DNA of 39,021 bases from Psammoneis japonica (GCA_008632985.1 QPGO01000594.1:1-39021); one strand, 5' to 3'; positions 15,246 to 39,021 are shown, counted from the stretch's first letter. Numbers and translations: made by a program. Notes: generated by a model from the letters alone, not told the origin.

Positions 15246-15249
15246 ACAA

Positions 15250-16295: not shown

Positions 16296-16665
16296 TGCAG
16301 CGTGCAACTGTTGTGTGCATGTTTGTGATCACACATTGTTTGTGCGTCAATCGCACCACAGTCGCGGATGCACACGAAGGACAGAATGATCACACAGAGT
16401 TCATCGGAAGTCAAAAATTGCAAATGCAATTGACAGACAATGTCGACATCTCATGTGTCAATGGCAATCACATCCGGACAATCTGTTGTCATGAACAACT
16501 TTTTTTTGAAAGGCCTTTTAGTCTGTGGGACCAGCACAAGAGCTTTGGGCCATTGAGAACTCATTGGGAAAAACCAAAAATCACAGAGCAAAACTCAATC
16601 TCACAATTTCCACTTTTTGCACTTTGCCCCACTTTTGTTTGTGCTTGTTCTTTGGGCATGGTGCA
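16296..16665 (+). mobile_element. Solo LTR of the Gypsy family found at 24629-29025
   Basis: Full-length TG...CA match to the 367-bp LTR; flanks ATTG/GTTG look like a degenerate 4-bp TSD. Confidence 0.9.
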
Positions 16666-16739
16666 GTTGTTGTGGATGACACAAAGTTGGACAAGACACT
16701 TGAAGTTTTGCAAAAAAATATTGTGGTTGTCCATTGGCA

Positions 16740-17603
16740 GTGATGCCAACACACCATCTGAGGATGAAATTGGCCATTTGGACTTGGATGAGTGCTCCTG
16801 ACAGGAGGCCTTGGATGAACTGTTTGAATTGACAGAGAAAAGAGTGGTCAAAATGGATGGGAAGGAGTGGTCTGCAAAGAGTGGGAAGGCCCCCAAAACT
16901 CCAAGGAAATGCCAAGTGCATTTTGGCAACTGGGGCAATCCAAGGTTGAGTGTTCCCATTCCACACACTCCAAGAAATGCAGACATGGCTTGGCATGGCT
17001 CTGTCAAGCTCATCCAAAAGCATTTGGAAAATGAGGACAAGGAGATGGAAGAGCAAACAAGGTGCATCATTGATCGCTTGGGCAAGGCAGCGCCAAACAC
17101 ATTCTGCGAGGCTTGGTCCATTCACAAAGAGTGGCTTCATTGAGTGGCAAAAGAGTTGGCCAATGGCAACAAAATGTTGTGCTCAATGGAGGATGAGCAC
17201 CTGCACACAACCCTTGCTGGCATTCATGTGGACACACACAATGCATCCATGCATTGGAGGGGATTGCCAGACTTTCATTGCAACCCAACCGGCAACACAG
17301 ACATTGCCCTCCTTGTGTGTGCTCCAGTCAAGAAAGGTGTGTTGAAACCAATCTTGGTGTTGCAACATGCCAAAACCCATGACTTTTTTCAATGTGGGAT
17401 CCTTTTGTCATGGAGCAATTCATGTGGGGATGCACCTCACTCATTTGAACAGTTTGTTCTTCCGTGCAAGTGAGCCAAACAAATTGCTCAGGCCCAAGCC
17501 AAAGTGGGTTGGCAATCACAGCAAGAATGGACAACATCTGTTCCTTGCTTGGCACACAAAGCAAAACTTGCCGATGGTGGATGCAACGGATGAGGTGCAC
17601 TGA
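16740..17603 (+). pseudogene. Candidate TET/JBP-like 2OG-Fe(II) dioxygenase, decayed (copy A, 30-bp deletion)
   Basis: PRKCQVHFGNWG ... HTTLAGIHVDTHN (HxD) ... FFNVGSFCHGA (distal His) ... GQHLFLAWHTK, with one TGA and one frameshift. The N-terminal part probably extends to ~15850 across the solo LTR. Confidence 0.45.
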
Positions 17604-20600
17604 AAACACAACATGGAACCTTGTTTGTTCATGATGAAGATTGGCAACGGGTGCAATCAAATTTGAAAGAACAGAAATGAGTGCAATGACCTGAGCAGTG
17701 ATGGTTCCAACAAGGATTGGACATGTCTGCACAAAAGGTCAGACAGAATGGAACCAGTTCATGACTGCAGTGAGGCATCCAAAATTTGGCAACTTCAGGA
17801 AAGGTGACAACTGCAATGACAATGCACACAAGGAGCTGCTTTTGCAGACAACAGACAGGGTTGACACAGTTGGAGCATTCCAAAAAGGACACAACTGAGA
17901 CACATCAAACTCCAGCAGATCCAGTGGCCTCATCAAACATGTCATCATTGTCTGCCATGGAATGCTCCAGCTCCTTGGTTGCACGTCACTTGTTTCCATT
18001 CAGTTGCACCTCATTGTCCAGCTTGGAGGGTGGGAAAATGACTTGCTCTGCTGGGAAAAGGTTGCTGTGGTCTGTTCCCTTGGTGCGTGACAGAAAATCA
18101 AGAGTTGGTCCAACCAGGACATCCATTGCAACAGCAGCCAAATCTGCATTTGTGGGGCAAAAGCTGGCTGATTTGATCTTTCAAAAAATTGTTCCACACT
18201 CCCTGTTTTGCAAAGCCCCAGATGTTTCATTTGGCACATTTGTGGGAACAACAGCGCACCAGGCACATTCTTCAATGTCTGAAGAATGCACCTGGCTGAG
18301 TGAGAAATGACTTGCTTCAATCATGAACAAGTTTGTGCGTTCGCAAAATTGCCTCTTTTTCTGTTGGCGATCATTGACATTTTCATTGCCTGACAATTTT
18401 GCTGCGGAGCTTGCACGCAGAATTGCGCGGGCCCAATGTCACATGGATTCCCACCTGCATCTGGAGCATTTCGGACAAAGAGCCTTGACATCGCAGAGGG
18501 CCAGTCCTGGAGAGCCTTGCCTGGGCTGCCCAGCAGGACGAACTTGGCAACCTCCACCATGACCTCCACCATGGCTGCCAGCACCACTGGCGCGACTCGC
18601 ATTGTTGGGGCCAGCAACTTGTTGGCTTGGCTTCTTCCATTTTTTGGGCGGCATGGTTGATGACAGCACAAAATGGAAAAAGGGGTTGATTTAAGTCCTG
18701 GAAATGGGAGTGCAAAGGCAGAAGTGTGCGAAATTTCCAATCTTGACAAGGGCACTTCAATGTCACAAAATCAAACTTGTTGAAAAAATGTGGGATGTCA
18801 ATGACTGAATGATTCATCAAGGTTTTCAAATCATTCAAACCATTGCATTGTGGCAAAAAGATTGAATTTTAAAATGAAATTGTTGCTGAAAAAGAGATGC
18901 TGGTGGGAATCAACTGATGGTGATGCTCACAGTTTGGCCAAAACACGAGTTGTCCCTCCCTCACAAGACACAGAAAATGCAAACTCAAGTTGCAAGCAAT
19001 GCATGAAAATGAGAGTGGCAGTGACAAGTGGCAGCATTGTGGATGGGACAGAATGAAATGCAGGACACAAGGTGAGAAAGAGGAAACAAGTGGCTGGTGC
19101 ATGGAGATCAGGTGCACAACGCAAACAACGGACACTTGTGCACATCTTTGCACACAGAAATCTGCACAGCAACCTGACATGATGCAAAGGAAGATTGGCA
19201 ATGGGGAAGGGCACAAAGGCGAGCCAAAGCAATGCATGAGACAAGATTGCAGGAAACACAAGACACACGCAAAAACTGATCATTGGCACAAAGGTTTGTC
19301 CAGTCGCAGGCAATGCTTTGCCCAACCAAACAGAAGGAACCTGAGATTGATCATTCATCAGCGGCCGCAACACAGTGGTGTTCACTTCCCTTCATCTAGT
19401 TTGTGCCAATTGACGTTGTGTGAGTTTGTCTTTTTTTTTACTCAAGAACAAGCATGTGAGGTGAGAAATTGGGCTTCATTGGAAAACCTCTGCTGCTGTG
19501 ATTTTTTGCACATTCATCACCAACATTCATCCAGTCCATCAAGTTGTGCATGTTTGCACACAAACATCAGAGCCACACTCACCACTCTCAAGGCTGCAGC
19601 ATTCAGATGGGGTGAGATGTGGCTCAACCCCAGAGCCATGATTGCAAACATTTTCAGCTTTGCTGCTGTGCAACGGTGTGACCATGATTCTCACCTGCCC
19701 ACTCCAACTGCTTCTCTCTTTGACACACACTCATTTCATCAAAAGTGAGTGGCATTGAGCCCTTTTGGCTTGTTTGCTCATCATCCTTCTTGGCATTTTT
19801 CTTCCTTGTGTGCAAAATTTCCACACAAGTTTCAGCACAATCTCCACACATTCCGAAAGTCAACTTGCCAAACTGTTGACTGCTCTCCATCCATGCCTCT
19901 CAGGTGTCAGTGACCCAAATTCTGTCCATTGTCAATTTAAGTTCCATGCTTCACATGGTGAACAACCTTCTGTTGTTGTTGCTCTTCAAAGTTTTGTCAT
20001 CCATTTGCTTCTCCCATTGGCTTTTCCTTGCAAGATCTGGCACTGTTTCTGTGTGACACCACTGACAATCTGTGTGTCACTTCTCTGGACTGCTTTTGTC
20101 CTTGCCAATTGGCCCCCAATGCTGCTTCTTTTCTCTGCTGTTCAATCAAATCCTTCACTCTTTGGGGTGAATGTGCTGCTTCTGTTGTGGCCTTTCCAGC
20201 AAGAATGCAAGTCATCCTGTGGCATCATTTGATTGTCATCCTGTTTGCTGCTCCCATCAGCTTTTCTGCACAAGACCTGGCACTGTTTCAACATGCAACA
20301 AATGTTTTTGCCATGACCTGCTTGTCTCACCTTCACGGCTTCTTTTGCAAACTCTTTTGGCAACCTGTCCAAATGCAATTGTCCTTTGCAGCTGTGGTGT
20401 GCATTCTGTGGCTGTCATCAGCAAGCACACAATGAATTCCTCATGTGAGTCATTCCTTTTCAGTTGTTTTGGTGGGGTGTCACCTTCTGGTGGTGCCCAT
20501 TCTGGCCAATCCCATGCAAGCTCCTGCTGCACTGAAGCAGTGCACTGGGAGTGTGGGTCAGCTGGCACCGGCGTGGCTGGCAATGGAGTGACTGCACTTG

Positions 20601-21344
20601 CAATTCAGATTTCTTTTTTTTGGTGCACTGGGGGTGTGGGTCACTTGTTGTCAGAGTTGCAGGATGGAAGCACAGCAGCAGTTTAAATGCAGATTTTGGG
20701 TTTTGCTTTGCTTTGACTGATGCAAGCAGCACAGAGCAGTGTGACTGCCTTGAAGTGCAGATCAGGAAGAGCAGTGTGCAACCCCATGAATGACATGTTG
20801 TGATGTGGCACTTGCTTCACTGTCAATGGAAAGACAGCAAGCAAACCCCTCAACAAGAAGCTTGTGTGCCTCAGGTTGGCAGCAGCAGCAAAGCACATGC
20901 CCCATTCATTCCATCCAATGAGCGGCTCTGACAAAGGCAAGATGCCCGAGTTGTCACTCAGCTGTGCTGAGGCAAAGCAAGGAAGACAAATCAGATGTTG
21001 GCAAAAAGGAACCTCTTCTCCAGTCTCCTGGGATCAGCTGGTCAGGAATTCACTCAAAGTGATGCAGAGATGTTTGTCCAAGCACTGGTCAAAACAAAGA
21101 GAAGAGAGGCAGAGTTGGGTGCAATGCAAACTGACATCTCCAAGAGAGCTGCTTTTGCTGCCAGTTTGTGTCTTGAAACAACAAAAAAAAAATGACAAAA
21201 GACAGAAAAAGAAAGTTCTGTGGTTGCATCAACTCTGTCAATGCCAGCAGCAACAAAGGGAAAAGCAAAAAATGTCTTTGTTCACCCATGGTGTGACCCA
21301 TGTTGTGCCAGTTGCATCATGACAAATGGCTTGTGCACAATCAC

Positions 21345-24060
21345 ATCTGGCACACATCAACCACCTTTGTGTGCATGTTGGTCAGGAGGGGTGCAGAGGT
21401 GCACTTGCAGGGGATTCAATGGGGTCCCTGTGTGCAAGTTCATGGTGCAGTGTCTGCCCTTGGGCAGATCAAAACATGGTTGCAGGCACACACTGTCAAA
21501 GCCATGTGCACCCATGGTGTTTGTTGGGCTGTTCTCAACTTGAGAAATCACAAATTCCCTGAACCAGAGCTGGAAATGCTGTTTGCAGTGTCGAGGTTCC
21601 TTCATTGCAAAACAGTGTGCGTGGACTGCAAGAGTGTCAGAAATTCTTTTGTTTTGTGAGCAAACATTCAACACAGCAGTGTTCTTGATTGTGGCATGCT
21701 TGCACATCAACTTGGGTGTCATCTTGTGCAGCACATGGTGTGGAGCAGCCCGAGTTTGCTCCTTGATGGTCTGCATGCTCTGCTCAACTTCAGGCACATG
21801 GCCTTTCATGTTTGTGGAAATCAGCTCTAGATTTGCACCATCAGCAACTTCTGTCAGAATTTCTTTGAACTTGAGATCACACTCAAAAAAGTCAATCTTG
21901 AGTGGGGTGTGTTGCGCTGTTGGAGAATCATGTCCCGTGCTTTGCACATGTCACTGTGCTTTTTGGACCTCTGCCTCTCACTAAATTGGTGCTTGATTGT
22001 CTTGTCCGTCATGCACAGCAGCTTGACCCCACATGTTTCCACAGTGTCAATGCAGAAGATCATGCCTTTTCTCTGCTTCTCACACATCTCAGGTGGTGTG
22101 AATGCAATGTCATTCCTCTCATGAGAATGATGTGGTGAGTGCTTGGCCTTGCCTTTGTCACATCTGTTGACAGACCCCAAATGGCCACCATCCTGTCCAC
22201 ATCTTGAAGTGCAATGGACAAGTTTTTCACCTGGTCAGATTGTAAAAACAGCTTGAAATCCCTCACATTGGGTGCTCCAGCTTTGCAGCACAGTCTGAGT
22301 GCTTGCTCAGCACTTGGTGCCTCTCTCTTGGTGCATCTTGTTTTTTCACAGCATGCTCACATGTGCCTCACTTTCTTGGAGATCTTTTGCATGGTCAAAG
22401 AACCACTGGCTCAGTGCAAAGACACAGGGGCTGATGTTGTTCACTTTGAATGCTGTGACCTGCTTGCCAGTCTTCTTGTTCAGCAGTTGGAGTCAATCCA
22501 CCACTCAGCTGTCATGAGCAATGCAGCACTTGTTCTTTGCATCCTTTAAACTCAGGATGTTTGCAGTTGTGTTCTGTGATCCCAACTTCATGTCTCCTCA
22601 TCCAGTCATGGTGGCGTGGTGCTTGTCCAAGGCATTCACTCTCACACCAGTGGACAGGTCAACCTTGACCTTTGCTGGATGCATGTCATGCACCAGTCTC
22701 TGGCTTGCTGCCACGCTGAGGGTGAAGCCATTGTCAAGGATGAGTTCATCCAACTTGACACCCACATCAGCTTGGCTCAGTGTTGGAGCTTTTTGGTCTC
22801 ACCATCTCTCTAAACTTGCCATGTGGCTTGCAGCCACAAGGGAGAGAACAGAAAAAAGGAGCAGCAACAGGGGAGCAAGGGATGCAGCAGTGGCAGAGGG
22901 CAGCACCGGGGAGCAAAGGCGCCAAGGGCACAGCCCTTGCAGCCCGCCACAGTGCCCCAGAGGGCAGAGACTGCTGCTGCAGCTTGGTCGCACTGTGTTG
23001 GTGAGAACAGGAGCAAGCCAGCAAGCTGAGAGAGAGGGAGAAGAGGGTGATGGTTGCTCATCACATGTGCTGGCCACCGCAGCAGAAGGGCAGGAGCAAA
23101 AACATCAAGAGCAAGAAGAAAGCTGGGAAAGAGGAAAAGAGGGGCAAGGAGCGCCAGCCCCTGGCTTGCAAGAGGCCAAAGCAGCAGAGATTGTTGAGGG
23201 TTGAAAAAGGGAGAGCAAGAGAAACAGCAAAAAAAGGGCAAGACAACACAAAAGAGGAAAGAGGGAGAGCACCGGGGCAAAAGAGAGGGGGAGCAGAGGC
23301 ACTGGACATGAGAAAGCCGGGCAGATGTGGGCCAAAAAAATCAAAGAAAACAAGGGACAAGCAAAAAGAAGCTGGCTGGCAGCTTTGCATGAACACAGCA
23401 GCAGCCACAGCAGTGCTGCAGCATGGTGCATGCCGCAGCAGCACTGGCGGCACACCTGACTTGAGAGTGTGGCTGTCAAGCACGTGCAGTGAGCTGGCAA
23501 CAGCCCGCAGTGCCAGCAGCAGAGAGCGGAGAAAGCAACCCAGACAGAGCTCAAGGAAGAGAAGGAAAGAAAGGCCATCAACCACTGTCACCATGTTGAT
23601 TGGGTGCAGAAGCCAAAAAGTGAGCACAAGACCTGCAACTCAACCTGAGTTGCAAATGCAAACTTGCCACATTGTTCACAATCATCAGTGTGTCTTGCAC
23701 TGCAACTTTGTCTGTCTGTCCTGTGAAAAACCACCTCTGACCCCAATGTTCCAACACACTCCTTCACACAAGCCATCAATTGATTGGCCTTGTGCACATG
23801 AAGCACAGGAAGACGACACTTAGAAACCATGCCACCCAACACCCCATCAGCTGTTCCATTGATTCCCATGGTCCACACATGATCTGACTCTGCTGACAAA
23901 TTGTTGTTGTCAGAGCAATCCCCTCTCACATGCCCAACCTTGTCGCACTTCCAGCATGCAATCTTCTTCTTGTTTTCTGTGCAGAACTTGTGCGTGTCCA
24001 ACACCTGTGGCACCTCCTTGGCTGATTTAGAGGACAAATGTCCACCCCAAATGTGAGCTG
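21345..24060 (-). mobile_element. Second copy of the Copia-like remnant (interrupted)
   Basis: Same motifs, including CWKCDKVGHVRGDC in ORF 23588-24037 and integrase ORF 21357-21947. Confidence 0.85.
22839..23574. repeat. Purine-rich (G/A-skewed) complex repeat inserted in the Copia remnant
   Basis: Absent from copy 1 at ~14052. Shares blocks with 24062-24628, e.g. GCCAGCAGCAGAGAGCGGAGAA...GAAGAGAAGGAAAGA and GCAAGCCAGCAAGCTGAGA.AGAGGGAGA. Confidence 0.75.
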
Positions 24061-24061
24061 C

Positions 24062-24628
24062 CAGCAGCAGAGAGCGGAGAACTCAACCCAGGCAGAGCTC
24101 AAAGAAGAGAAGGAAAGAGAGAGGTTGAGAGGCAGAGGGTGGACAAACAGAAAGAGTCAAGAGCGCCAGCACCAGCACAGCAACAGGGGGGGGCGACAAA
24201 TGAGCAAAGGACAGGCAAGCGAAGAGAGCCAAGAGCCCCGGCACCAGCGCAAGGGAGAGAGGGGCCAGACAAAGCCAAGGAGAGCAGGGGGGCAGGCAGC
24301 GGCGAAGCCAGAAAAAGCAGGGCGAGACAAGAAGGGGCTGGCCAGCAGTGGCTTTGCATCAATGATGCAGCAGCAGCCACAGCAGCACAAGCCAGCAGAG
24401 GGCAGCAAAAGCGCCAAGAGCGCAGCCTTTGCAGCCCCCCTGGGGGCAGGTTGAAAGGGAGAGAAGGAGGGCGGGCATGCAAGCAGGAAAAGAGAAGGGT
24501 TGAACAAGATCAAAGAGGAAGAGAGGAGACAGGGGCAAAAGCAAGGCTGTGAAGAATGAGCAGCAAGCCAGCAAGCTGAGAAAGAGGGAGAGAAGAGGGT
24601 GGTGGTCACCCACAGCGCTGCGGCGCAG
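24062..24628. repeat. Second purine-rich repeat block, target of the Gypsy insertion (probably resumes at 29026-29085)
   Basis: Permuted homology to 22839-23574; strongly T-poor top strand. Confidence 0.7.
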
Positions 24629-24995
24629 TGCAGCATGCGACTGTTATATGCACATTCATAATTACACATTATTTATATGTCAATCGTACCACAGTCGTGG
24701 ATGCGTACGAAGGACAGAACGATCACACAGAGTTGATCGGATGTCGAAAATTACAAATACGATCGATTGACGATGTTGACATCTTACGTGTCAATGGCAA
24801 TCGTATCCGGACAATCTGTTGTCACAAATATATTCTCCGAAAGGCCTTTTGTCTGTAGAAGCAGTGCAGAAGCTTTAGGCCATTGAGAACTCGTTCGGAG
24901 AAACCAAAAATCACAGAGCAAAATTCAATCTCATAATTTCCACTTTTCGTACACTATTCTACTTTCGTTTACACTCGTTCTTCGAGCATAGTGCA
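24629..24995 (+). repeat. 5' LTR (367 bp), TpA largely retained
   Basis: Hand alignment to 28658-29025; contains 23 TpA. Confidence 0.95.
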
Positions 24996-27900
24996 TTGTG
25001 TGTGCACACCACAGAAGGTAAAAAGCACGAAAAATCAAAATTTTAACTAATGTGCCTTTGTAAATTCTTCTATGAACAGGGACGAATCGCATCAGTTCTG
25101 CTGGAATCAATTTCCGAGTGGAAGAAGCTCAATCCGAGCAGCACCTCAAGATGGAACGCTGTTTTTCGTCTAGCAAATGACAAGATTCGTTCTAATACAA
25201 TCCATTCCAAGTGTCTCAGGACCAAGGACTCTACAAGAGCACAGCATTGTCGAAACATCCACACCAAGTCATGGTTGGGTAGAATTTCAAGTCCCGAGTC
25301 GATCAGATCCGAGAAACACATCTACTTTGCAAGGAGAGACTATTGGAGAGTTTTTTGAGACCGAATCGACGAGCCTCCAGTCCAAAGAGCAAGAGGGAAC
25401 CGTTCAAAAGCACCTCAAGTGTCTCACAACTCATGTCCTCCGAGGAAATGCACTTCAGAATCAGAGTTGTTATTTTCAAGACGATCTGAAGAAACCAGAG
25501 CTGCTTGACAGCAAGAAAGCCTCTGTTAGACCCAAGAGGTCAATGAAGAGAGTCTATACGACCCTTCAATGGATTCTAAGTTGAATCTAGCGGGAAACCG
25601 AGCCGTGAGCTGTCAGCTGTCACTCGCACCGCAAGGATGGCAGCATCAGCCCACTGTCCAAAACATTGGATTGTTGGATCATGCCCTTGACGAGATGATT
25701 GAGGTTTGAGTCGTCCAGAGGTCAGCGAGGACGTCCATGACAAAAAAACACATCAAATCAGGCTCTGATGGCGCTGTTGATTCCAAAATCAAAAAGGTTC
25801 CAAATTTGGTTCCCAAAATGGTCTCCCACATGGCACCTGAACAATCCAAAGTGAATGCAAGGTCCAATCTTTGAAAAAAGAACACCTGCATCACGGATTG
25901 AAGCTGTTCTGAAAATGAACCAGCAAAAGAGTGCAAGGGTGACTCTGAAAGAGACCCAAAAATGCGCCGTTCAAATGGCAATCGCACGCGGTCGAGTCGC
26001 GACAACGAAAATGCCGCTCGCAAAAAAAGAGTTGAACGTCATGATTGATCAGGCGGTTCAAAAAATGCTCAAAGCGAGTTCCTCGAACAAAGAAAAAGAG
26101 CATGAGGGCAAAGAATCAGATTCTGATGCCCTCAGTGAAGAAAAACACCAATTTGATCGGATGATCCAGAGTGAATCCGAAGAACAATTTGGGTCCATTC
26201 ACGAATTGTTTGCTCTGCTGGATGTTAGGAAGCCTGGAAAAAAGGCAGAAATAATTCACACCAGTCCAGGAGTCATCATTTGTGTGAACAATTCCTTGGG
26301 AAAGGAGAGAAAAAAGCATCTGCGTGTTCCTGTCGATGACGGAACATCGTCAACCACAATTTTGCGCAAATTCGTGCGAAAGTTGAGAACACAAGAATCC
26401 GCCACCAAAAACTTGGGAAACCAAGGGTGAGCTCTTTACGACTGACAGCAAACACCGAATTCAGTTCTCACCATTCGAATTTAAGACATGCTGATGTTCA
26501 AACAGCACATGTTGAAAACACCAAATCTTCGTCAGGTTCAAATGATGTGATCATGGGACGCGACTTGATGTCCAGTCTTGGAGTCATGTTGGACTGCGCA
26601 AATGAAGAAATCAAATGGGAAGAAGCAATTGCCCTGTGAAGAATGTTCGTGCACTCTTCAATGCCGATGTTTTCAAGCTGAAAACCGATCACATGAAAAA
26701 TGTGACGCCGTGAACAGAGTTGACAACGGAGCCAATGGTCCTCGACTCACATCATCGCGCCATCGATCCCAATCAAGTGACAACTGCGGCGATGCATCTG
26801 ACCCAAATGAACACAACCAACTCAATCTTCTTCTCAAGAGGTTGAAATCTTTTTGAAAAGTTCCTCAGACGAGTGCATGGGAAGAACCAGTGGATCTCAT
26901 CATGGAAAATCTGACGCGATTCCACGACGCGTGAGAACCTTCTCCTGTCACAGTCTTTGGAGGCATCCAATCAAAAGGAGTTTGACCTGTTGTAAAAGAT
27001 TGAAGTCTTAAAAATGAAACTGCTCTGAATGAGTCACTCTGAGACTCATTGTCCAAAGAAAACAGGTCAAGTTTGACCGCGTCCGACACTCAGAAGCTCA
27101 GCAAAAGGTTCACACACGCAGTGCATCCTTTGCCCAATGTTCAGGAAATGCTGTTGAAGCAAGAACGTTTCATGTGTGTAATCCATTTAATTCAAACATG
27201 GAATGCCACCATGTCAAACAAAAAAAAGCACGTCGTGCTCACACAAAAATCATGTCATGGGGAGAAAATGAGTGCTGTCGATTTCCAATGAGAATCTGCA
27301 GAGCCCCAGACATTTTCACACAACACATGAGCGAACTCATGACAGGTTTGAAGTTGTCAGAATGACTGCATGTGATCGTTTGTGCCTGACAAAAGCAACT
27401 TCAAAATGTCGCCTGCACAAGTGACAGCTCAGTGCGGCATTCAAACGACTGGAACAGTCGCTCAGAAGGTTGACAACAAATTTCTTTCACTGTTTAACTT
27501 GAAATAAACTGTCAATGCTTCCATGCGCAACGATGTGCAATCGATCACAAAGAAAATGGAGGCGATTCAAGCAATCGCAACACGAGAAAAACGCAAAGAA
27601 CACTGCGACATCTCGTTGTCATGCGTCACTGCCATCGAGACATGCAGTCTCAATGTCCCACCGTTAAAACAGGATAAAGACATTTCCCTCCAAATTGTCG
27701 GACGCGACATGTCATACGAACACTTTTCGTGGAGGCGAGCGAGATCGAAAAATGCTCATGTCATGAGGACAAAATCGCCTTGTTTTTAAAAAGGACGGTT
27801 AGAAAAAAACTCTGTGATAGATTGGTGTGGTGTTACAGTGTCCACTTCACACTGGCAAAAAGACAATCTCACAACACCCGTGCGGTTGCATTGTACAATG

Positions 27901-28657
27901 TGCGAGGCAAGACATTGAAACACACATCATGTCGACACACGAGATGTGCCAAAGATCTAGAAAAAGAAAAGAAAAATGGACATTTGTCCACCAGTGCACG
28001 AAAGCAGTGCCTTCGGAATGACAAAATGACACCGGTGCCTGTGTCAAAAAGAAACGTCCAAACAACAATTCAAATCCAACTGACAGATGGTTGAAGCACA
28101 AAAAATCCACAATGGAGTTCACAACCATCACAGGACTGATTGTCAAGACGAAATGGTCACATCCTTGACCATCGTCAATTGTCACCCATGAAACGGGCAG
28201 TGCAGCAGAGCAATGTGGCATGTGAAGCAAGCCCGCCAAACCACACGAAATCCACAAGTGCAAGAAGTGGTCTAAGTGAACGCCAATTAAGTGCGTACAT
28301 CAAGCACTGGGCAAAATGCTGTGTGCAATCGACACCATGAAAGAACAGCAGGACAGTTGGTCCTTGTGTCCACATGAACAAAACAATGTCAGAGAGAATG
28401 CTCGATGCAACACTGCAGCACATTTGCACACATGTGCACACAGAGAGGGTCACACACACACACAAAGCATGAGACAAATCACGACACTCTCGAAAGACAT
28501 TTGGAAATTGAAATGGTCCTGTGCTGGCCTGCACAAAACAACAACAGTCATTGCCAATGGCACAATGCAGTTAACGTGGAGACATTGTTGGCACTGTCAA
28601 TGTCCGCCAAATCACTCCACTTGACGAACAACTCCAATGTGCAATTAGGGAGGCGAA

Positions 28658-29025
28658 TGCAGTGTGCGACTGTTGTGTGCATGTTCACAATTGTGTGTCA
28701 TTCATGTGTCAATCGCACCACAGTCGTGGATGCGCACAAAGGACAGAACGATCACACAGAGTTGATCGGATGTCAAAAATTACAAATGCAATCGATTGAC
28801 GATGTTGACATCTTGCGCGTCAATGGCAATCGCATCCGGACAATCTGTTGTCACAAACACATTCTCCGAAAGGCCTTTTGTCTGTGGAAGCAGTGCAGAA
28901 AGCTTTGGGCCATTGAGAACTCGTTCGGAGAAACCAAAAATCACAGAGCAAAATTCAATCTCATAATTTCCACTTTTCGTGCACTGTTCCACTTTCGTTT
29001 GCACTCGTTCTTCAAGCACAGTGCA
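28658..29025 (+). repeat. 3' LTR (368 bp), TpA nearly eliminated
   Basis: Preceded by the PPT, followed by the TSD; contains 2 TpA. Confidence 0.95.
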
Positions 29026-29819
29026 GCAGCAGCACCAAAGTGACCCGGAGAAAAGACCAGCGTGCAATTTCCGCCAAAACAACCCGCTTTTGTCTTTGCC
29101 AATTGGCCCCCAATGCTGCTTCTTTTCTCTGCTGTTCAATCAAATCCTTCACTCTTTGGGGTGAATGTGCTGCTTCTGTTGTGGCCTTTCCAGCAAGAAT
29201 GCAAGTCATCCTGTGGCATCATTTGGTTGTCATCCTGTTTGCTGCTCCCACCAGCTTTTCTGCACAAGACCTGGTGCTGTTTCAACACGCAACAAATGTT
29301 TTTTGCCAATGCTTGTCTCACCTTCACGGCTTCTTTTGCAAACTCTTTTAACAACCTGTCCAAATGCAATTGTCCTTTGCAGTTGTGGTGTGCATTCCAT
29401 GGCTGTCATCAGCAAGCACACAATGAGTTCCTCATGTGAGTCACTCCTTTTCAGTTGTTTTGGTGGGGTGTCACCTTCTGGTGGCGCCCATTCTGGCCAA
29501 TCCCATGCAAGCTCCTGCTGCACTAAAGCAGTGCACTGGGAGTGTGGGTCAGCTGGCGCCGGCGTGGCTGGCAATGGAGTGACTGCACTTGCAACTCAGA
29601 TTTCTTTTTTTTTGGTTCACTGGGGGTGTGGGTCGCTTGTTGTCAGAGTTGCAGGATGGAAGCACAGCAGCAGTTTAAGTGCAGATTTTGGGTTTTGCTT
29701 TGCTTTGACTGATGCAAGCAGCACAAAGCAGTGTGACTGCCTTGAAGTGCAGATCAGGAAGAGCAGTGTGCAACCCCACGAATGGCATGTTGTGATGTGG
29801 CACTTGCTTCACTGTCAAT

Positions 29820-29959
29820 TGCAACATGCAGCCACTGACAAGAGCCAATGCATGCAGACAAAAACAACCTTTTGTCTGCATGCATGCTGCAGACGTGTTG
29901 CAGTTTAAATGTCACAAAGGTCGTGACAAAAACAACCTTTTGTCTGCATGCATGCTGCA
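29820..29959. mobile_element. 140-bp TG...CA insertion with CAAT TSD, short terminal inverted repeats and an internal hairpin (mini solo LTR or MITE)
   Basis: Absent from copies 1, 2 and 4 (CTGTCAATGGAAAG). CAAT at 29816-29819 and 29960-29963. Ends TGCAACATGCA / TGCATGCTGCA are a 10/11 inverted match. Confidence 0.85.
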
Positions 29960-31099
29960 CAATGGAAAGACAGCAAGCAAACCCCTCAACAAGAAGCTTG
30001 TGTGCCTCAGGTTGGCAGCAGCAGCAAAGCACATGCCCCATTCATTCCATCCAATGAGCGGCTCTGACAAAGGCAAGATGCCCGAGTTGTCACTCAGCTG
30101 TGCTGAGGCAAAGCAAGGAAGACAAATCAGATGTTGGTAAAAAGGAACCTCTTCTCCAGTCTCCTGGGATCAGCTGGTCAGGAATTCACTCAAAGTGATG
30201 CAGAGATGTTTGTCCAAGCACTGGTCAAAACAAAGAGAAGAGAGGCAGAGTTGGGTGCAATGCAAGCTGGCAGCTCCAAGAGAGCTGCTTTTGCTGCCAG
30301 TTTGTGTCTTGAAACAACAAAAAAAAATGACAAAAGACAGAAAAAGAAAGTTCTGTGGTTGCATCAACTCTGTCAATGCCAGCAGCAACAAAGGGAAAAG
30401 CAAAAAAAATCTTTGTTCACCCATGGTGTGACCCATGTTGTGCCAGTTGCATCATGACAAATGGCTGGTGCACAATCACATCTGGCACACATCAACCACC
30501 TTTGTGTGCATGTTGGTCAGGAGGGGTGCAGAGGTGCACTTGCAGGGATTCAATGGGGTCCCTGTGTGCAAGTTCATGGTGCAGTGTCTGCCCTTGGGCA
30601 GATCAAAACATGGTTGCAGGCACACACTGTCAAAGCCATGTGCATCCATGGTGTTTGTTGGGCTGTTCTCAACTTGAGAAATGTTGTTCACTTTGAATGC
30701 TGTGTCCTGTTTGCCAGTCTTCTTGTTCAGCAGTTGGAGTCAATCCACCACTCAGCTGTCATGAGCAATGCAGCACTTGTTCTTTGCATCCTTTAAACTC
30801 AGGATGTTTGCAGCTGTGTTCTGTGATCCAAACTTCATGTCTCCTCATCCAGTCATGGTGGCGTGGTGCTTGTCCAAGGCACACCAGTGGACAGGTCAGC
30901 CTTGACCTTTGCTGGATGCATGTCATGCACCAGTCTCTGGCTTGCTGCCACGCTGAGGGTGAAGCCATTGTCAAGGATGAGTTCATCCAACTTGACACCC
31001 ACATCGGCTTGGCTCAGTGTTGGAGCTTTTTGGTCTCACCATCTCTCTAAACTTGCCGTGTGGCTTGCAGCCACATTGTCATTGCCATCAACCACTGTC

Positions 31100-31685
31100 A
31101 CCTGCCTGCCAACCTGAAATCTGCCAACAACAATGGCACACCCCTGTTGCAGTCCACTCTGTCCCAAGTGAGACATTTGCTGAGTTGCTTCAACTGTCAA
31201 AGCAAAAGACTGGTTTCCTCATTGTGAGGCCATTTCTTGGCTTTGTTCATCTCCACTTTTGATTGTGCGTGACAGTCGGAAATGCAAAAGGCCATGATGA
31301 CATGGCTTGTCACTGCAACTCCCATTCCAGCAACATCTCTCAGATGAACAGTGACTGTGACATGCCACAGCATTTTGGTGACAACCCCTCATTTGCTTGC
31401 AATTTGGTGGAACAAGAGAATGTCCAGGGGACAGTGGAGGCTGCCATGGTGGCCATGGAGGAAAGGCATCATGGCAAGGCAACTGCTGCTTGCAAATGGT
31501 GCAAGGACATTTCTCAGCACTTGGCTCATCCTGTGTTTCAGGACATCCCTCATGGTGGAGGAAAGCATGGCATTTTTGGCATGCTCCCCTGGGAACTGTT
31601 GCATGCCTTGCACTTGGCTTTTTGCAAGTGTCTGCTTCAACAATGCAGGAAACTTGAACAGACAACAGGGAGAAGGGGGGGTCAT
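31100..31685 (+). mobile_element. Second copy of the Plavaka-like transposase fragment
   Basis: ORF 31263-31688 is nearly identical to ORF 15412-15837. Confidence 0.55.
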
Positions 31686-32147
31686 TGATGCTTGAGAGGC
31701 ATGGAGAGAGACCAGTCGGCAGTTTGATGAGTCATCTGTCTAAAAATGCCTTGCAGAACATGCAGAGTTTGCACTGAAACCTGTGTGGAAACCTTGCACA
31801 TGAGAACAAAAAATGCCAAGAAGAGTGCCGAGCAAATGAGCCAACAGGGCTTGACGCCAATTGTTTTCCACTGCATGAGATTGCCAATGATTGTAGAACA
31901 AAGGCATGTTGACAAAAGAGCACATCTGAACAGGCAGGTGAGAACCATCACCACACCATCAGAGAAAAGGCAACATCAGCACCAGAGCTTGTGCAGAAAA
32001 ACATGCAGAGGGTGTGGCCGTGAAGCTGAGGCAGAATTGTGCAATCATCCAAAAACAGCAGAGCACTGCAATGAAACTGCATTTTTTGAAGACAACCACG
32101 TGCATTTCATTCAAATCAACCAAAAGTGGAGTCAGAAAAACCAATTG

Positions 32148-32515
32148 TGCAGCGTGCAACTGTTGTGTGCATGTTTGTGATCACACATTGTTTGTGTGTC
32201 AATTGCACCACAGTCGCGGATGCGCACGAAGGACAGAATGATCACACAGAGTTCATCGGAAGTCAAAAATTGCAAATGCAATTGACAGACAATGTCGACA
32301 TCTCATGTGTCAATGGCAATCACATCCGGACAATCTGTTGTCACGAACAACTTTTTCGAAAGGCCTTTTAGTCTGTGGGACCAGCACAAGAGCTTTGGAC
32401 CATTGAGAACTCATTCGGAGAAACCAAAAATCACAGAGCAAAACTCAATCTCACAATTTCCACTTTTTGCACTTTGCCCCACTTTTGTTTGTGCTTGTTC
32501 TTTGAGCATGGTGCA
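32148..32515 (+). mobile_element. Solo LTR, duplicate of 16296-16665 within repeat copy 3
   Basis: Same insertion site and sequence; flanks ATTG/ACTG. Confidence 0.9.
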
Positions 32516-32584
32516 ACTGTTGTGGATGACACAAAGTTGGACAAGACACTTGAAGTTTTGCAAAAAAATTGTGGTTGTCCATTG

Positions 32585-33481
32585 CCAGTGATGCCAACAC
32601 ACCATCTGAGGATGAAACTGGCCATTTGGACTTGCATGAGTGCTCCTGACAGGAGGCCTTGGATGAACTGTTTGAATTGACAGAGAAAAGAGTGGTCAAA
32701 ATGGATGGGAAGGAGTGGTCTGCAAAGAGTGGGAAGGCCCCCAAAACTTCAAGGAAATGCCAAGTGCATTTTGGCAACTGGGGCAATCCAAGGTTGAGTG
32801 TTCCCATTCCACACACTCCAAGAAATGCAGACATGGCTTGGCATGGCTCTGTCAGGCTCATCCAAAAGCATTTGGAAAATGAGGACAAGGAGATGGAAGA
32901 GCAAAAACAAGGTGCATCATTGATTGCTTGGGCAAGGCAGTGCCAAACACATTCTGCAAGGCTTGGTCCATTCACAAAGAGTGGCTTCATTGAGTGGCAA
33001 AAGAGTTGGCCAATGGCAACAAAATGTTGTGCTCAATGGAGGATGAGCACCTGCACACAACCCTTGCCATCAACAGTTGCTGTGGTGGTGGGGTTGCTGG
33101 CATTCATGTGGACACACACAATGCATCCATGCATTGGAGGGGATTGCCAGACTTTCATTGCAACCCAACCGGCAATGCAGACATTGCCCTCCTTGTGTGT
33201 GCTCCAGTCAAGAAAGGTGTGTTGAAGCCAATCTTGGTGTTGCAACATGCCAAAACCATGACTTTTTTCAATGCAGGATCCTTTTGTCATGGAGCAATTC
33301 ATGTGGGATGCACCTCACTCATTTGAACAGTTTGTTCTTCTGTGCAAGTGAGTCAAACAAATTGCTCAGGCCCAAGCCAAAGTGGGTTGGCAATCACAGC
33401 AAGAATGGACAACATCTGTTCCTTGCTTGGCACACAAAGCAAAACTTGCCGATGGTGGATGCAACGGATGAGGTGCACTGA
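32585..33481 (+). pseudogene. Candidate TET/JBP-like 2OG-Fe(II) dioxygenase, decayed (copy B, more complete)
   Basis: HTTLAINSCCGGGVAGIHVDTHN ... FFNAGSFCHGA ... GQHLFLAWHTK, matching a TxxxN-(x)n-HxD ... H ... R-x5-aromatic layout once Q->R and C/H->Y are restored. Confidence 0.5.
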
Positions 33482-33859
33482 AAACACAACATGGAACCTT
33501 GTTTGTTCATGATGAAGATTGGCAATGGGTGCAATCAAATTTGAAAGAACAGAAATGAGTGCAATGACCTGAGCAGCGATGGTTCCGACAAGGATTGGAC
33601 ATGTCTGCACAAAAGGTCAGACAGAATGGAACCAGTTCATGACTGCAGTGAGGCATCCAAAATTTGGCAACTTCAGGAAAGGTGACAACTGCAATGACAA
33701 TGCACACAAGGAGCTGCTTTTGCAGACAACAGACAGGGTTGACACAGTTGGAACATTCCAAAAAGGACACAACTGAGACACATCAAACTCCAGCAGATCC
33801 GTTGGCCTCATCAAACATGTCATCATTGTCTGCCATAGAATGCTCCAGCTCCTTGGTTG

Positions 33860-35606
33860 CATGTCACTTGTTTCCATTCAGTTGCACCTCATTGTCCAGC
33901 TCGGAGGGTGGGAAAATGACTTGCTCCACTGGGAAAAGGTTGCTGTGGTCTGTTCCCTTAGTGCGTGACAGAAAATCAAGAGTTGGTCCAACCAGGACAT
34001 CCATTGCAACAGCAGCCAAATCTGCATTTGTGGGGCAAAAGCTGGCTGATTTGGTTTCTCCACCTCCAAATTGTTGCTTCAGGAAAGAAAGGCCCATGTT
34101 CACTGAAAGTGCCATCCAATGCACGGTTGGAGGTCATGACAATGTTGCGCCACTTCATGAAATGTGCAATGTCTGGGGCAGCATGCTTCTGCTTGGATTT
34201 AGCCAAAGGGACATTGGCAATGAAGTGATTGTGCAAACGTGCACATTTTTGAACAACACCATCATTGGCTGGATCGCTGCTTTTGGGTGCAGCTGGCATG
34301 TCATCCATGTTGCACAGGCTGTCAATCAGATCATCCTCATGATGCCAGAACACATTGGCAAGGAGAAACTTTGCAGTGATCAACTGGGTGAGTGCCTCCT
34401 GAGCGGCACTTTCCATGCAGTGGGTCACAGCTGGCTCATTGTTCTTGGCGTAAAAGTTGGTGACTTTGTCGTGGCTCTGACTGCAGTCTTTCATTGGCAT
34501 TCAAGTGCAACAAAGGCTGACAGCAGCAGCAAGAGGCAAGAAAAAATCTGCCCACAGAGATGGGGCCAACCATCCAAAGTGGCAGGTGGTGCAGAGACAG
34601 GCTGCATTGTGATGACACGCAACAGCACTGTTTTCCTCAACTGTTGACACAGTGCCAGCAGGAGGGGCAGTGAACAAGTCAACAGGAGTGTGCTGGCCTG
34701 CAAAAAAGACAAATGAACCACAAACCCATCATGGTCACACAGAGAAGATTCAAAGAAGAGGGGACAAGGATTTGCATCACCTGCATCACCATGATGGGAG
34801 CCACAGACTCCACAAAGGACTGTGGGAAACAAGGCACTGCCGGCCTTTTTGGGTGGCAGAGTGTGGTTGATTTGTGTTCTGAGACAGGAAGCAAAGGTGT
34901 TTTGTTCTTAATTCATGAAGTTGAGGGCCAAGGGGCCAACCTTCTCCCAAAACTTTTGACAAACTTCAGGTTTGTTGAATTCATTGTCAGACCTGTCCTT
35001 GTCATTTTTTGGGTTTTTTGGGAAGACATGTTCCCAAACCATCAAGGCAAAGGGACATTTGGAGTTTGCACCGGCATCCAGGAGTGGATGGCAAATCACA
35101 GTGTTGCCAATCTCTTGTTTGGATGGAAAACCCAGAGAGAACAGAGCAGCATGACCCACCTTTGAGTTGCCCACTTTCTTCACAAAGTTGGTCTCCAAAT
35201 TTGTCATTTTGCTGGCATGAAAGGTCTGTTTCTGAGCTTTCTAGAGAGAGGCAACGGCCTTGTTGGCAGTGACAATTTTTGCACCACAGGCGTTGTGCTT
35301 TTGCTGCAGTTGCTTGCACATCTTTTTGTTGTGGTTTTTGCATGGGCTGCACATCCTCCAGCAAAACAAAAGCCACACTCTGCAATCATTGCCAGACATT
35401 TGGTTTCACTTTGTCATGCTGCTTGAGAGAAATTCAACATCTTCTTTTTGAATTTGAGGGGAACAGTTCTCAGACACATCATCAGAGGAGTCGGCTTCTT
35501 CATTGATGGAGGCTGCAGCAGCGGTGGCAGCTGCTGGGTCATTGACTGGTGGAGCAGCTGTGGATGACATGTTCCAGCCCTGGGTGGAAGCTTGTGGTGC
35601 TGACAT
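33860..35606 (-). pseudogene. Decayed long ORF of unknown product, possibly an accessory gene of the Plavaka-like element
   Basis: Protein-like segments MSAPQASTQ...EEADSSDD (35406-35606), MTNLETNFVKK...FWEKVGPLALNFMN (34908-35207) and ORF 33976-34500 line up with stops and frameshifts; mostly deleted in copy 1. Confidence 0.35.
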
Positions 35607-36924
35607 GTGACATGATCATTTTTGTCATCTGTTGCATGTTTCACACTCACATTTCTGCATGTGATCTTTCAAAAAATTGTTCCACACTCCCTGTTTTGCA
35701 AAGCCCCAGATGTTTCATTTGGCACATTTGTGGGAACAACAATGCACCAGGCACATCCTTCAATGTCTGAAGAATGCACCTGGCTGAGTGAGAAATGACT
35801 TGCTTCAATCATGAACAAGTTTGTGCGTTCTCAAAATTGCCTCTTTTTCTGTTGGCGATCATTGACATTTTCATTGCCTGACAATTTTGCTGCGGAGCTT
35901 GCACGCAGAATTGCATGGGCCCAATGTCACATGGATTCCCACCTGCATCTGGAGCATGTCGGACAAAGAGCCTTGACATCACAGAGGGCCAGTCCTGGAG
36001 AGCCTTGCCTGGGCTGCCCAGAAGGACGAACTTGGCAACCTCCACCATGACCTCCACCATGGCTGCCAGCACCACTGGCACGACTGGCATTGTTGGGGCC
36101 AGCAACTTGTTGGTTTGGCTTCTTCCATTTTTTGGGCGGCATGGTTGATGACAGCACAAAATGGAAAAAGGGGTTGATTTAAGTCCTGGAAATGGGAGTG
36201 CAAAGGCAGAAGTGTGTGAAATTCCCAATCTTGACAAGGGCACTTAATGTCATAAAATCAAACTTGTTGAACAAATGTGGGATGTCAATGACTGAATGAT
36301 TCATCAAGGTTTTCAAATCATTCAAACCATTGCATTGTGGCAAAAAGATTGAATTTTAAAATGAAATTGTTGCTGAGAAAGAGATGCTGGTGGGAATCAA
36401 CTGATGGTGATGCTCACAGTTTGGCCAAAAAACGAGTTGTCCCCCTCACAAGACACAGAAAATGCAAACTCAAGTTGCAAGCAATGCATGAAAATGTGAG
36501 CGGCAGTGACAAGTGGCGGCATTGTGGATGGGACAGAATGAAATGCAGGACACAAGGTGAGAAAGAGGAAACAAGTGGCTGGTGCATGGAGATCAGGGCA
36601 CAACGCAAACAACGGACACTTGTGCACATCTTTGCACACAGAAATCTGCACAGCAACCTGACATGATGCAAAGGAAGATTGGCAATGGGGAAGGGCACAA
36701 AGGCGAGCCAAAGCAATGCATGAGACGAGATTGCAGGAAACACAAGACACACGCAAAAACTGATCATTGGCACAAAGGTTTGTCCAGTCGCAGGCAATGC
36801 TTTGCCCAGCCAACAGAAGGAACCTGAGATTGATCATTCATCAGCGGCCGCAACACAGTGGTGTTCACTTCCCTTCATCTGGTTTGTGCCAATTGACGTT
36901 GTGTGAGTTTGTCTTTTTTTTACT

Positions 36925-39021
36925 CAAGAACAAGCATGTGAGGTGAGAAATTGGGCTTCATTGAAAACCTCTGCTGCTGTGATTTTGCACATTCATCACC
37001 AACATTCATCCAGTCCATCAAGTTGTGCATGTTTGCACACAAACGTCAGAGCCACACTCACCACTCTCAAGGCTGCAGCATTCAGATAGGGTGAGATGTG
37101 GCTCAACCCCAGAGCCATGATTGCAAACATTTTCAGCTTTGCTGCTGTGCAACGGTGTGACCATGATTCTCACCTGCCCACTCCAACTGCTTCTCTCTTT
37201 GACACACACTCATTTCATCAAAAGTGAGTGGCATTGAGCCCTTTTGGCTTGTTTGCTCATCATCCTTCTTGGCATTTTTCTTCCTTGTGTGCAAAATTTC
37301 CACACAAGTTTCAGCACAATCTCCACACATTCCGAAAGTCAACTTGCCAAACTGTTGACTGCTCTCCATCCATGCCTCTCAGGTGTCAGTGACCCAAATT
37401 CTGTCCATTGTCAATTTAAGTTCCATGCTTCACATGGTGAACAACCTTCTGTTGTTGTTGCTCTTCAAAGTTTTGTCATCCATTTGCTTCTCCCATTGGC
37501 TTTTCCTTGCAAGATCTGGCACTGTTTCTGTGTGACACCACTGACAATCTGTGTGTCACTTCTCTGGACTGCTTTTGTCCTTGCCAATTGGCCCCCAATG
37601 CTGCTTCTTTTCCTGCTGTTCAATCAAATCCTTCACTCTTGGGGTGAATGGCTGCTTCTGTTGTGGCCTTTCCAGCAAGAATGCAAGTCATCCTGTGGCA
37701 TCATTTGATTGTCATCCTGTTTGCTGCTCCCATCAGCTTTTCTGCACAAGACCTGGCACTGTTTCAACATGCAACAAATGTTTTCTTGTCTCACCTTCAC
37801 GGCTTCTTTTGCAAACTCTTTTAACAACCTGTCCAAATGCAATTGTCCTTTGCAGTTGTGGTGTGCATTCCATGGCTGTCATCAGCAAGCACACAATGAA
37901 TTCCTCATGTGAGTCATTCCTTTTCAGTTGTTTTGGTGAGGTATCACCTTCTGGTGGTGCCCATTCTGGCCAATCCCATGCAAGCTCCTGCTGCACTGAA
38001 GCAGTGCACTGGGAGTGTGGGTCAGCTGGCACCGGCGTGGCTGGCAATGGAGTGACTGCAATTGCAATTCAGATTTCTTTTTTTTTTGGTTCACTGGGGG
38101 TGTGGGTTGCTTGTTGTCAGAGTTGCAGGATGGAAGCAAGCAGCAGTTTAAGTGCAGATTTTGGGTTTTGCTTTGCTTTGACTGATGCAAGCAGCACAAA
38201 GCAGTGTGACTGCCTTGAAGTGCAGATCAGGAAGAGCAGTGTGCAACCCCACGAATGACATGTTGTGATGTGGCACTTGCTTCACTGTCAATGGAAAGAC
38301 AGCAAGCAAACCCCTCAACAAGAAGCTGTGTGCCTCAGGTTGCAGCAGCAGCAAAGCACATGCCCCATTCATTCCATCCAATGAGCGGCTCTGACAAAGG
38401 CAAGATGCCCGAGTTGTCACTCAGCTGTGCTGAGGCAAAGCAAGGAAGACAAATCAGATGTTGGTAAAAAGGAACCTCTTCTCCAGTCTCCTGGGATCAG
38501 CTGGTCAGGAATTCACTCAAAGTGATGCAGAGATGTTTGTCCAAGCACTGGTCAAAACAAAGAGAAGAGAGGCAGAGTTGGGTGCAATGCAAACTGGCAT
38601 CTCCAAGAGAGCTGCTTTTGCTGCCAGTTTGTGTCTTGAAACAACAAAAAAAAATGACAAAAGACAGAAAAAGAAAGTTCTGTGGTTGCATCAACTCTGT
38701 CAATGCCAGCAGCAACAAAGGGAAAAGCAAAAAAAATCTTTGTTCACCCATGGTGTGACCCATGTTGTGCCAGTTGCATCGTGACAAATGGCTTGTGCAC
38801 AATCACATCTGGCACACATCAACCACCTTTGTGTGCATGTTGGTCAGGAGGGGTGCAGAGGTGCACTTGCAGGGATTCAATGGGGTCCCTGTGTGCAAGT
38901 TCATGGTGCAGTGTCTGCCCTTGGGCAGATCAAAACATGGTTGCAGGCACACACTGTCAAAGCCATGTGCATCCATGGTGTTTGTTGGGCTGTTCTCAAC
39001 TGAGAAATGTTGTTCACTTTG
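36925..39021 (+). repeat. Segmental repeat unit, copy 4 (runs off window)
   Basis: Collinear with 19443-21548 and ends in the same deletion junction CTTGAGAAATGTTGTTCACTTTG seen in copy 3. Confidence 0.93.

Follow-up and report, generated by a model that had tools for sequence, protein, structure and literature searches.

How can two sequences that were identical at their origin come to differ at nearly every TpA step and at no ordinary position? The question is raised by a long terminal repeat (LTR) retrotransposon at 24629-29025 of the Psammoneis japonica sequence QPGO01000594.1:1-39021 (GCA_008632985.1), one strand of 39,021 nucleotides that was analysed as a whole (hereafter the window). 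The element is probably a Ty3/gypsy-type insertion beside the ribosomal DNA (rDNA) which decayed where it stands, through hypermutation of TpA on both strands together with a slower decay of CpG.

The two LTRs (24629-24995 vs. 28658-29025 in the pairwise alignment) were 9.5% diverged overall with zero background substitution: there were 34 mismatched columns and one 1-bp indel, and every mismatch was a transition inside a pyrimidine-purine (YpR) step. The 23 TpA of the 5' LTR were represented in the 3' LTR by TG (11 cases), CA (10 cases) or TA (two kept), and the remaining differences were four CG to CA changes, one TG vs. CG, and four CA-vs-TG doubles. Positions outside any YpR step did not differ (0 of 167; 95% upper bound of the pairwise divergence there, 1.8%). 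TpA loss was far beyond chance (21 of 23 TpA changed, none at the other A/T positions) and corresponded to an expectation of about 2.6 events for each TpA site of the 3' LTR, a rate at least about 290 times the background of the non-YpR sites. A preliminary description of this DNA had given the same alignment counts, including the 18 CpG of the 3' LTR, and they were reproduced exactly. Its statements that TpA decay is much faster than CpG decay (21 of 23 TpA changed vs. four CG to CA and one TG/CG) and that the products are without strand bias (TG:CA 11:10 in the LTR, 5 CA to 4 TG in the interior), pointing to chromosomal DNA, were borne out. It had also proposed the LTR pair as an internal clock; the pair is indeed young by the background and near-saturated for TpA loss, but clock-like behaviour did not hold, the decay being unequal between the LTRs (see below). 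As the pair diverged by 9.5% without background substitution, dating by LTR divergence fails in such genomes and YpR sites should be masked.

Further copies of the family gave the direction of change. In a 4-way alignment with two older solo LTRs in the window (Table 1), 20 sites had TA in the 5' LTR and TG or CA elsewhere; at these sites the 3' LTR and the solo LTRs carried the same product in 13 cases and opposite products (CA vs. TG) in seven, and further CA/TG oppositions were present at sites where the 5' LTR itself had changed. The opposite products at 7 of the 20 sites indicate that an ancestral TA was resolved separately from copy to copy. Other copies of the element were compared through the contigs of one public run (40 differences listed, 90 further rows): among the differences listed, there were at least 11 places at which this copy had CA (7) or TG (4) and the other copies had TA in 55-100% of the depth, two of them being 24665 and 24667, at which CA of the 5' LTR faces TG of the 3' LTR. 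The other copies were likewise mostly TA at 25612, 25834, 26146, 26472, 26947, 27132, 27917, 27923 and 27992. In the reverse transcriptase (RT), the conserved motif GYYH was ECHH in this copy, with codons TGC CAC at 27204-27209, and conserved tyrosines read as Cys and His imply that TpA was lost, not gained. The direction is, on the copies compared, one of TpA loss and not of a gain resembling repeat-induced point mutation (RIP).

Loss was distributed very unequally between the two LTRs. From about 27 ancestral TpA per LTR, about 3-4 were lost in the 5' LTR vs. about 24-25 in the 3' LTR (Fisher p ~4e-9), and the few conversions of the 5' LTR were all located within 24634-24668, in its first 40 bp. 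The last TA of the spared tract was at 25588, and the following 637 bp (25589-26225) were without TA; at 25612 this copy has TG and 84% of the other-copy depth has TA, which places the switch within 24 bp (25588/25612). The spared island (about 920 bp, from U3 through the leader) lies inside converted DNA, the element body and 3' LTR being about 90% converted. Both LTRs share a family-rare TA at 24753 (TG in all the counted other-copy depth) and a family-rare CA at 24826 (CG in 97% of the other-copy depth); these shared variants argue that the LTRs are true sisters, not copied from a random intact element. Two ways in which the preliminary description could have been wrong were thereby answered. 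The family consensus does not match the 3' LTR state, since other copies are mostly TA and opposite products occur at 7 of 20 sites, and an origin of the 5' LTR from a random intact copy is not supported, given the two family-rare variants and the joined flanks of the empty site (see below). LTRs identical in sequence and opposite in fate suggest that the mutator is directed by position or chromatin state, not by sequence: the spared tract may correspond to the chromatin of an active promoter in the 5' LTR, the mutator following silent chromatin. A small partial island (27629-27960) with nine retained TpA was also present within the otherwise converted element body.

The products of TpA loss were arranged along the LTR as expected for independent events on the two strands (12 runs vs. 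12.3 expected, runs test), with no strand-coordinated clusters. The copies of the macro-repeat that surrounds the element (97% identical) showed 220 difference events in 8 partly overlapping pair comparisons: 20 CA/TG doubles, 19 TA-vs-TG/CA, and 119 ordinary substitutions, among others. TpA depletion also tapered off within unique rDNA spacer (6750-7000). As units duplicated as DNA and the edge of a unique spacer are both affected, action in situ on chromosomal DNA is indicated.

Within the window the depletion is regionally confined (TA rho 0.87 vs. 0.04), with edges at 6750-7000 and 25588/25612. The control stretch used for dinucleotide rho (rDNA and spacer, 2383-6800) had rho of 0.87 for TA and 0.92 for CG; the block minus the element (6900-39021, 27,725 nt) had 68 TpA (rho 0.04) and 276 CpG (rho 0.17), together with rho of 1.87 for CA and 1.79 for TG. 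From about 6750 to the window end, each kb had 0-5 TpA and 4-15 CpG, and TG+CA were doubled to about 230. The TG+CA excess of the block (about 2,280) was similar to its combined TA+CG deficit (about 2,750), both estimated from the counts and the control rho, which fits conversion and not deletion. At the rDNA-side edge, TpA dropped between 6750 and 7000 (about 250 bp) and CpG faded over 7000-8500 (about 1.5 kb), so that the two depletions have different spatial reach. The 5' LTR had a TA rho of 0.6-0.7 and intact CpG; the element body and 3' LTR had a TA rho of about 0.1 and a CpG rho mostly of 0.5-1.1, up to 1.39. These three stages (5' LTR; body and 3' LTR; old block) indicate that TpA is lost first and CpG later, as in space. 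GC-biased gene conversion was considered as a cause and rejected: A/T outside TpA were untouched (rho 1.24 for AA and TT, 0.80 for AT) and GC stayed at about 48%.

The TpA that survived were not a random sample of contexts. Residual TpA of the block were of the type YTAR (pyrimidine-T-A-purine) in 46 of 68 cases, vs. 85 of 364 in unconverted controls (p 1.4e-12); in the element the type accounted for 13 of 26 TpA in the converted part, but for 8 of 41 (p 0.014) where the element was spared. Of 13 TpA common to macro-repeat copies, 10 belonged to it. Enrichment of the survivors for YTAR (A then purine on either strand) indicates that TA followed by a pyrimidine is preferred by the process.

The same footprint was found in related RTs. 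The nearest relative of the window RT, a public metagenome protein of 181 residues (P0001), has no Tyr; with respect to an intact relative (L001), all seven Tyr were replaced, five by Cys and two by His, and R>Q (twice) and L>S (three times) were also seen. Seven of 27 related RT proteins from public metagenomes were without Tyr. Over these 27 proteins, six conserved Tyr columns had 57 Y, 44 C, 21 H and 7 other residues, cells that are not independent events, and the mosaic varied by copy. The ratio of Cys (TGY, 44) to His (21) derived from Tyr codons (TAY) is in line with a process that favours a pyrimidine after TA. These Cys/His mosaics are putatively the protein-level scar of TpA to TpG/CpA hypermutation. 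Nine gypsy-type RTs (P0001, P0015, P0016, P0018, P0021, P0023, P0026, P0028 and P0032) had all or nearly all conserved Tyr turned into Cys/His mixtures, and one member with intact Tyr (P0031) is named at its source as from the diatom Cyclotella meneghiniana. Eight metagenome loci related to P0001 (L001-L008, the contig of P0001 itself not being among them) had ordinary TpA (rho 0.6-0.83), and a homologue search with the window RT open reading frame (ORF) for longer proteins gave no match.

The element is a predicted Ty3/gypsy-type LTR retrotransposon, inserted once. For its RT ORF (27033-27365), PF00078 (RVT_1) was present in five of the seven matched proteins tested (phmmer best E 3.1e-7), and relatives of the RT-matching proteins bear PF17917 and PF17919, RNase H domains typical of gypsy-type elements. 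The tblastn queries for the pol block at 26508-26627 were intact metagenomic relatives; no Pfam match was obtained for this block. RNase H and integrase were not found in the element by Pfam on its ORFs and frames, and no recognisable tRNA-complementary primer-binding site followed 24995, where it may have been mutated. An empty-site joint (24624 to 29026, with 4 shared letters) was found in three contigs of a public sequencing run (depth 201), which indicates that other macro-repeat units are without the element and that the element is a single insertion.

Table 1. Features of the window, with positions counted from its first nucleotide and the evidence for each.
Feature	Position	Strand	Evidence
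Eukaryotic large-subunit (LSU) rRNA gene, 5' part	1..1455	-	Rfam RF02543, 1326.7 bits
Eukaryotic small-subunit (SSU, 18S) rRNA gene, complete	2675..4478	-	Rfam RF01960, 1793.5 bits, model positions 1-1831
Spacer upstream of rDNA, normal dinucleotides, internal control	4479..6750	.	250-bp bins with 8-18 TA
Block with TpA and CpG converted to TpG/CpA	6751..39021	.	Dinucleotide counts
Macro-repeat units, 95-98% mutual identity	10421..39021	.	Self-BLAST and repeat search
Macro-repeat match	10681-14053 = 19443-22838 = 36925-39006		
Macro-repeat match	15251-18175 = 31102-34053		
Macro-repeat match	18171-21548 = 35659-39008		
Older solo LTR, same family, fully converted (1 TA, 9 CpG)	16295..16674	+	Self-BLAST
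Target-site duplication GCAG, left copy	24625..24628	+	Sequence
5' LTR (TG...CA), 23 TpA, 21 CpG	24629..24995	+	Alignment, dinucleotide counts
TpA-retaining tract: most of 5' LTR and about 600 bp of leader	24669..25588	+	TA rho 0.3-0.74
Converted tract: element body and 3' LTR	25589..29025	+	TA rho 0-0.24, one bin 0.38
Conserved pol block remnant upstream of RT, protease-like by eye	26508..26627	+	tblastn E 3e-4 to 8e-4
RT remnant, RVT_1 type	27049..27350	+	phmmer best E 3.1e-7; tblastn
Polypurine-tract-like run AGGGAGGCGAA abutting 3' LTR	28647..28657	+	Sequence
3' LTR, 2 TpA, 18 CpG	28658..29025	+	Alignment, dinucleotide counts
Target-site duplication GCAG, right copy	29026..29029	+	Sequence
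Older solo LTR in duplicated macro-repeat unit (1 TA, 11 CpG)	32148..32515	+	Self-BLAST, repeat search

On the rDNA side of the window, 900 N at 1483-2382 occupy the expected place of ITS1-5.8S-ITS2 (ITS, internal transcribed spacer), between the LSU and SSU genes. The spacer upstream of 18S had two pairs of direct repeats (6127-6177 / 6476-6526 and 6220-6249 / 6543-6572), about 320-350 bp apart and just before the start of the TpA depletion, which may be sub-repeats or duplicated promoter elements. In the macro-repeat, Pfam on 25 long ORFs gave nothing but one sub-threshold zinc-finger match. Gag-type CCHC zinc knuckles, CWKC(N/D)KVGHVRGDC, were seen on the minus strand in two macro-repeat units (14398-14439 and 23915-23956), suggesting that the macro-repeat holds the remnant of another, older retroelement in opposite orientation. 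A local tandem duplication (10421-10586 / 10586-10749, 88% identity) was present, as was a 181-bp segment inverted within each unit (10988-11154 vs. 15828-16008, 31679-31859 and others, about 71% identity). Segments 34053-35659 and 22838-23574 each belonged to one unit and were matched by none of the window's other units, indicating that large insertions or deletions distinguish the units.

To the established direction, context, both-strand character, relative speed and regional boundaries of the change, and to the single insertion, the proposed mechanism adds that a chromosome compartment would undergo DNA-level hypermutation, in which A>G on one strand or the other turns the palindromic TpA into TpG or CpA, at no less than about 300 times the rate of ordinary substitution. 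Both strands would be affected independently, site by site, in sharply bounded tracts; a slower decay of CpG to TpG/CpA would proceed alongside, and all YpR steps would converge with time on CA/TG. The process may be enzymatic and aimed at silent repeated DNA, by analogy with the chlorarachniophyte Bigelowiella natans (Mettrop et al., bioRxiv 10.64898/2026.01.13.699255). Its chemistry could be the deamination of adenine in polynucleotides, TadA/ADAT2-like, with A converted to inosine and read as G, a leading guess that is held with about as much doubt as belief. A wider proposal, which presupposes that the organism is a diatom, is that diatoms and their relatives have a mirror image of RIP. 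An enzyme system would edit the TpA adenine in double-stranded chromosomal DNA, act on silent repeats and on new retrotransposon insertions in tracts set by chromatin, spare an active 5' LTR promoter, and be so common in the sea that many metagenome gypsy-type RTs bear its Tyr>Cys/His scars. This proposal is possible and lies slightly on the doubtful side.

Several results weigh against this account. Uniform action predicts equal decay of the two LTRs; the decay was unequal and the switch at 25588/25612 abrupt. The 3' neighbour predicted the changed strand in the LTR at 15 of 25 one-sided sites (10 wrong), which is not significant and makes the context preference a moderate one. Pfam on ten element ORFs gave no family above the curated cut-off, with weak sub-threshold matches only, and on three full element frames, with X at stops, it gave no match; the RT came to light only by phmmer and tblastn. 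The sole run that contains this stretch is probably the source sample and thus not independent support; two more runs are from the same sample, and no RNA run with the stretch was listed.

Among the alternatives, the one that survives best concerns the chemistry and is unlikely: the thymine of TpA would be modified (for example TET/JBP-type, to 5-hydroxymethyluracil (5hmU) or a derivative) and would mispair with G, giving T>C without any deamination of adenine. For a palindrome, the sequence does not tell A>G on one strand from T>C on the other, and a process that favours a pyrimidine after TA could as well be described as favouring a purine before T. 5hmU in dinoflagellate DNA prefers TpA. 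Nothing in the sequence favours this chemistry over deamination, though. Deamination has on its side the U33-A34 context of tRNA deaminases, which fits TpA. An ADAT2-like deaminase is the candidate in the preprint (bioRxiv 10.64898/2026.01.13.699255).

A secondary origin of the asymmetry is improbable. The whole element would have been hypermutated, after which gene conversion would have replaced its 5' 0.9 kb with sequence of a less mutated sister in another macro-repeat unit. The boundary, confined to 24 bp, is as abrupt as such an event would make it, and macro-repeat units duplicate with their contents, so that a sister with the same private variants could exist. No such sister was found within the window, the 5' LTR has conversions of its own (24634-24668), and the extra event that is needed would account for the asymmetry only, not for the loss of TpA.

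Editing before integration is very improbable. Here the RNA or cDNA of the element would have been deaminated during retrotransposition (ADAR- or APOBEC-like), the two LTRs being copied at different times. Conversion that rises from low to high, starting at the 5' end of the element, superficially resembles graded retroviral hypermutation; in retroviruses, the mutations made by cDNA deaminases can form a gradient over the genome, with ends that may differ. The equality of the strands in LTR and interior and the lack of strand-coordinated runs are contrary to it, as are the macro-repeat copies, duplicated as DNA, and the edge in unique rDNA spacer, which are also affected. In B. natans, according to the preprint (bioRxiv 10.64898/2026.01.13.699255), the mutations arise in resident chromosomal DNA.

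An artefact is just as hard to credit, whether a chimera of an intact and a decayed copy or systematic miscalls of modified bases in heterochromatin (for example N6-methyladenine read as G and 5-methylcytosine read as T). The family is high-copy: the summed contig depth (not a copy number) runs to thousands in the body and reaches 53,000 in the LTR, vs. a depth of 40-44.5 for the contig pieces that exactly match this copy. The switch at about 25600 is abrupt. The exact matches nevertheless cover converted parts of the element (28205-28332 and 28381-28512, depth 40-44.5), and the two family-rare variants are common to both LTRs. Strand-specific miscalls at a palindrome would not yield a clean CA or TG consensus across 97%-identical copies, and the Tyr>Cys/His mosaic also occurs in separate metagenome assemblies. 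The weakest alternative, in which CA/TG of the 3' LTR are ancestral and the 5' LTR gained TpA through RIP-like C>T at CpA/TpG, could draw on the symmetry of the pairwise LTR difference, which alone gives no direction, and on the agreement of the solo LTRs with the 3' LTR at 13 of 20 sites, but it can be dismissed, as each of the seven opposite products would need two adjacent transitions, other copies are mostly TA where this copy is CA or TG, conserved Tyr codons were turned into Cys and His codons, and the surrounding 27.7 kb has a TA rho of 0.04, the opposite of a RIP footprint.

With in-situ TpA hypermutation as the preferred reading, a parallel is RIP of Neurospora and other fungi, a genome defence that likewise acts by transitions in a dinucleotide context, on repeats, on both strands and in bounded tracts, and leaves transposon frames wrecked. 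In RIP, C>T occurs mainly at CpA, creates TpA and lowers GC; the window shows the mirror image, with TpA destroyed and CpA/TpG created. RIP requires duplication and a sexual cycle, neither of which is known for the process described here. Methylation-driven decay of CpG to TpG/CpA would correspond to the second component, CpG having a rho of 0.17 in the older block and the 3' LTR having changed at 4-5 of its roughly 23 sites; the CpG decay of the window is much slower than TpA loss, trails it at the rDNA-side edge by some 0.5-1.5 kb, and explains no TpA change.

ADAR and APOBEC3 also leave deaminase-made clusters of transitions in retroelements, and a 5' U is preferred by ADAR too. Their substrates are RNA or single-stranded cDNA, so that one strand only is marked, and the change made by APOBEC is C>T instead of A>G. 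On the 3' side ADAR prefers G, whereas a pyrimidine is favoured here. The natural substrate of TadA/ADAT2, A34 after the invariant U33, has a TpA-like context, and early TadA-derived adenine base editors preferred YAC, which matches the T-A-pyrimidine of this work; activity of the natural enzymes on double-stranded chromosomal DNA is, in contrast, hypothetical. Adenine base editors are products of laboratory evolution, and an enzyme that naturally turned A into G at chromosomal TpA would be sought after. The sister LTRs, with the same sequence and opposite fate, constitute a natural experiment on how such an activity is directed.

The nearest match is the hypermutation of B. natans, where mutation-accumulation lines showed A>G/T>C solely at TpA, in two integrated viral regions and at about 6e-7 per site per generation, and where TpA-poor coding sequences were enriched in RT and DDE domains; an ADAT2-like adenine deaminase is proposed by the authors (Mettrop et al., 2026 preprint, bioRxiv 10.64898/2026.01.13.699255). 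Its available text makes no mention of LTRs, diatoms or CpG. Beyond the preprint, a literature search with subscription journals outside it gave no account of hypermutation directed at TpA, be it in diatoms or in other stramenopiles. Both cases have near-exclusive A>G/T>C at TpA, with TpG or CpA according to strand, discrete region limits, a rate orders of magnitude over background, and a footprint with TpA reduced and CpA+TpG raised. They differ in their targets (giant-virus and virophage inserts in B. natans; an LTR retrotransposon and macro-repeats beside rDNA here), in their extent (TpA rho of 0.45 in the B. natans nucleocytoplasmic large DNA virus (NCLDV) region; near saturation here, rho 0.04), in the spatial coupling with CpG decay and the boundary inside a single element that are seen here, in the kind of evidence (mutation-accumulation lines vs. 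comparison) and in the host (chlorarachniophyte vs. apparently diatom-like, to judge by features of the 18S and by one relative of a relative with a diatom name). The present finding would be a second and more extreme case of the recently described hypermutation, in a second lineage; new here are the retrotransposon and satellite targets, the TA-pyrimidine preference, the boundary within an element, and the footprint in metagenome gypsy-type RTs. If true, mutational defence by TpA to TpG/CpA conversion extends from one chlorarachniophyte to a second lineage, to retrotransposons and to satellites, which suggests a widespread counterpart of RIP outside the fungi.

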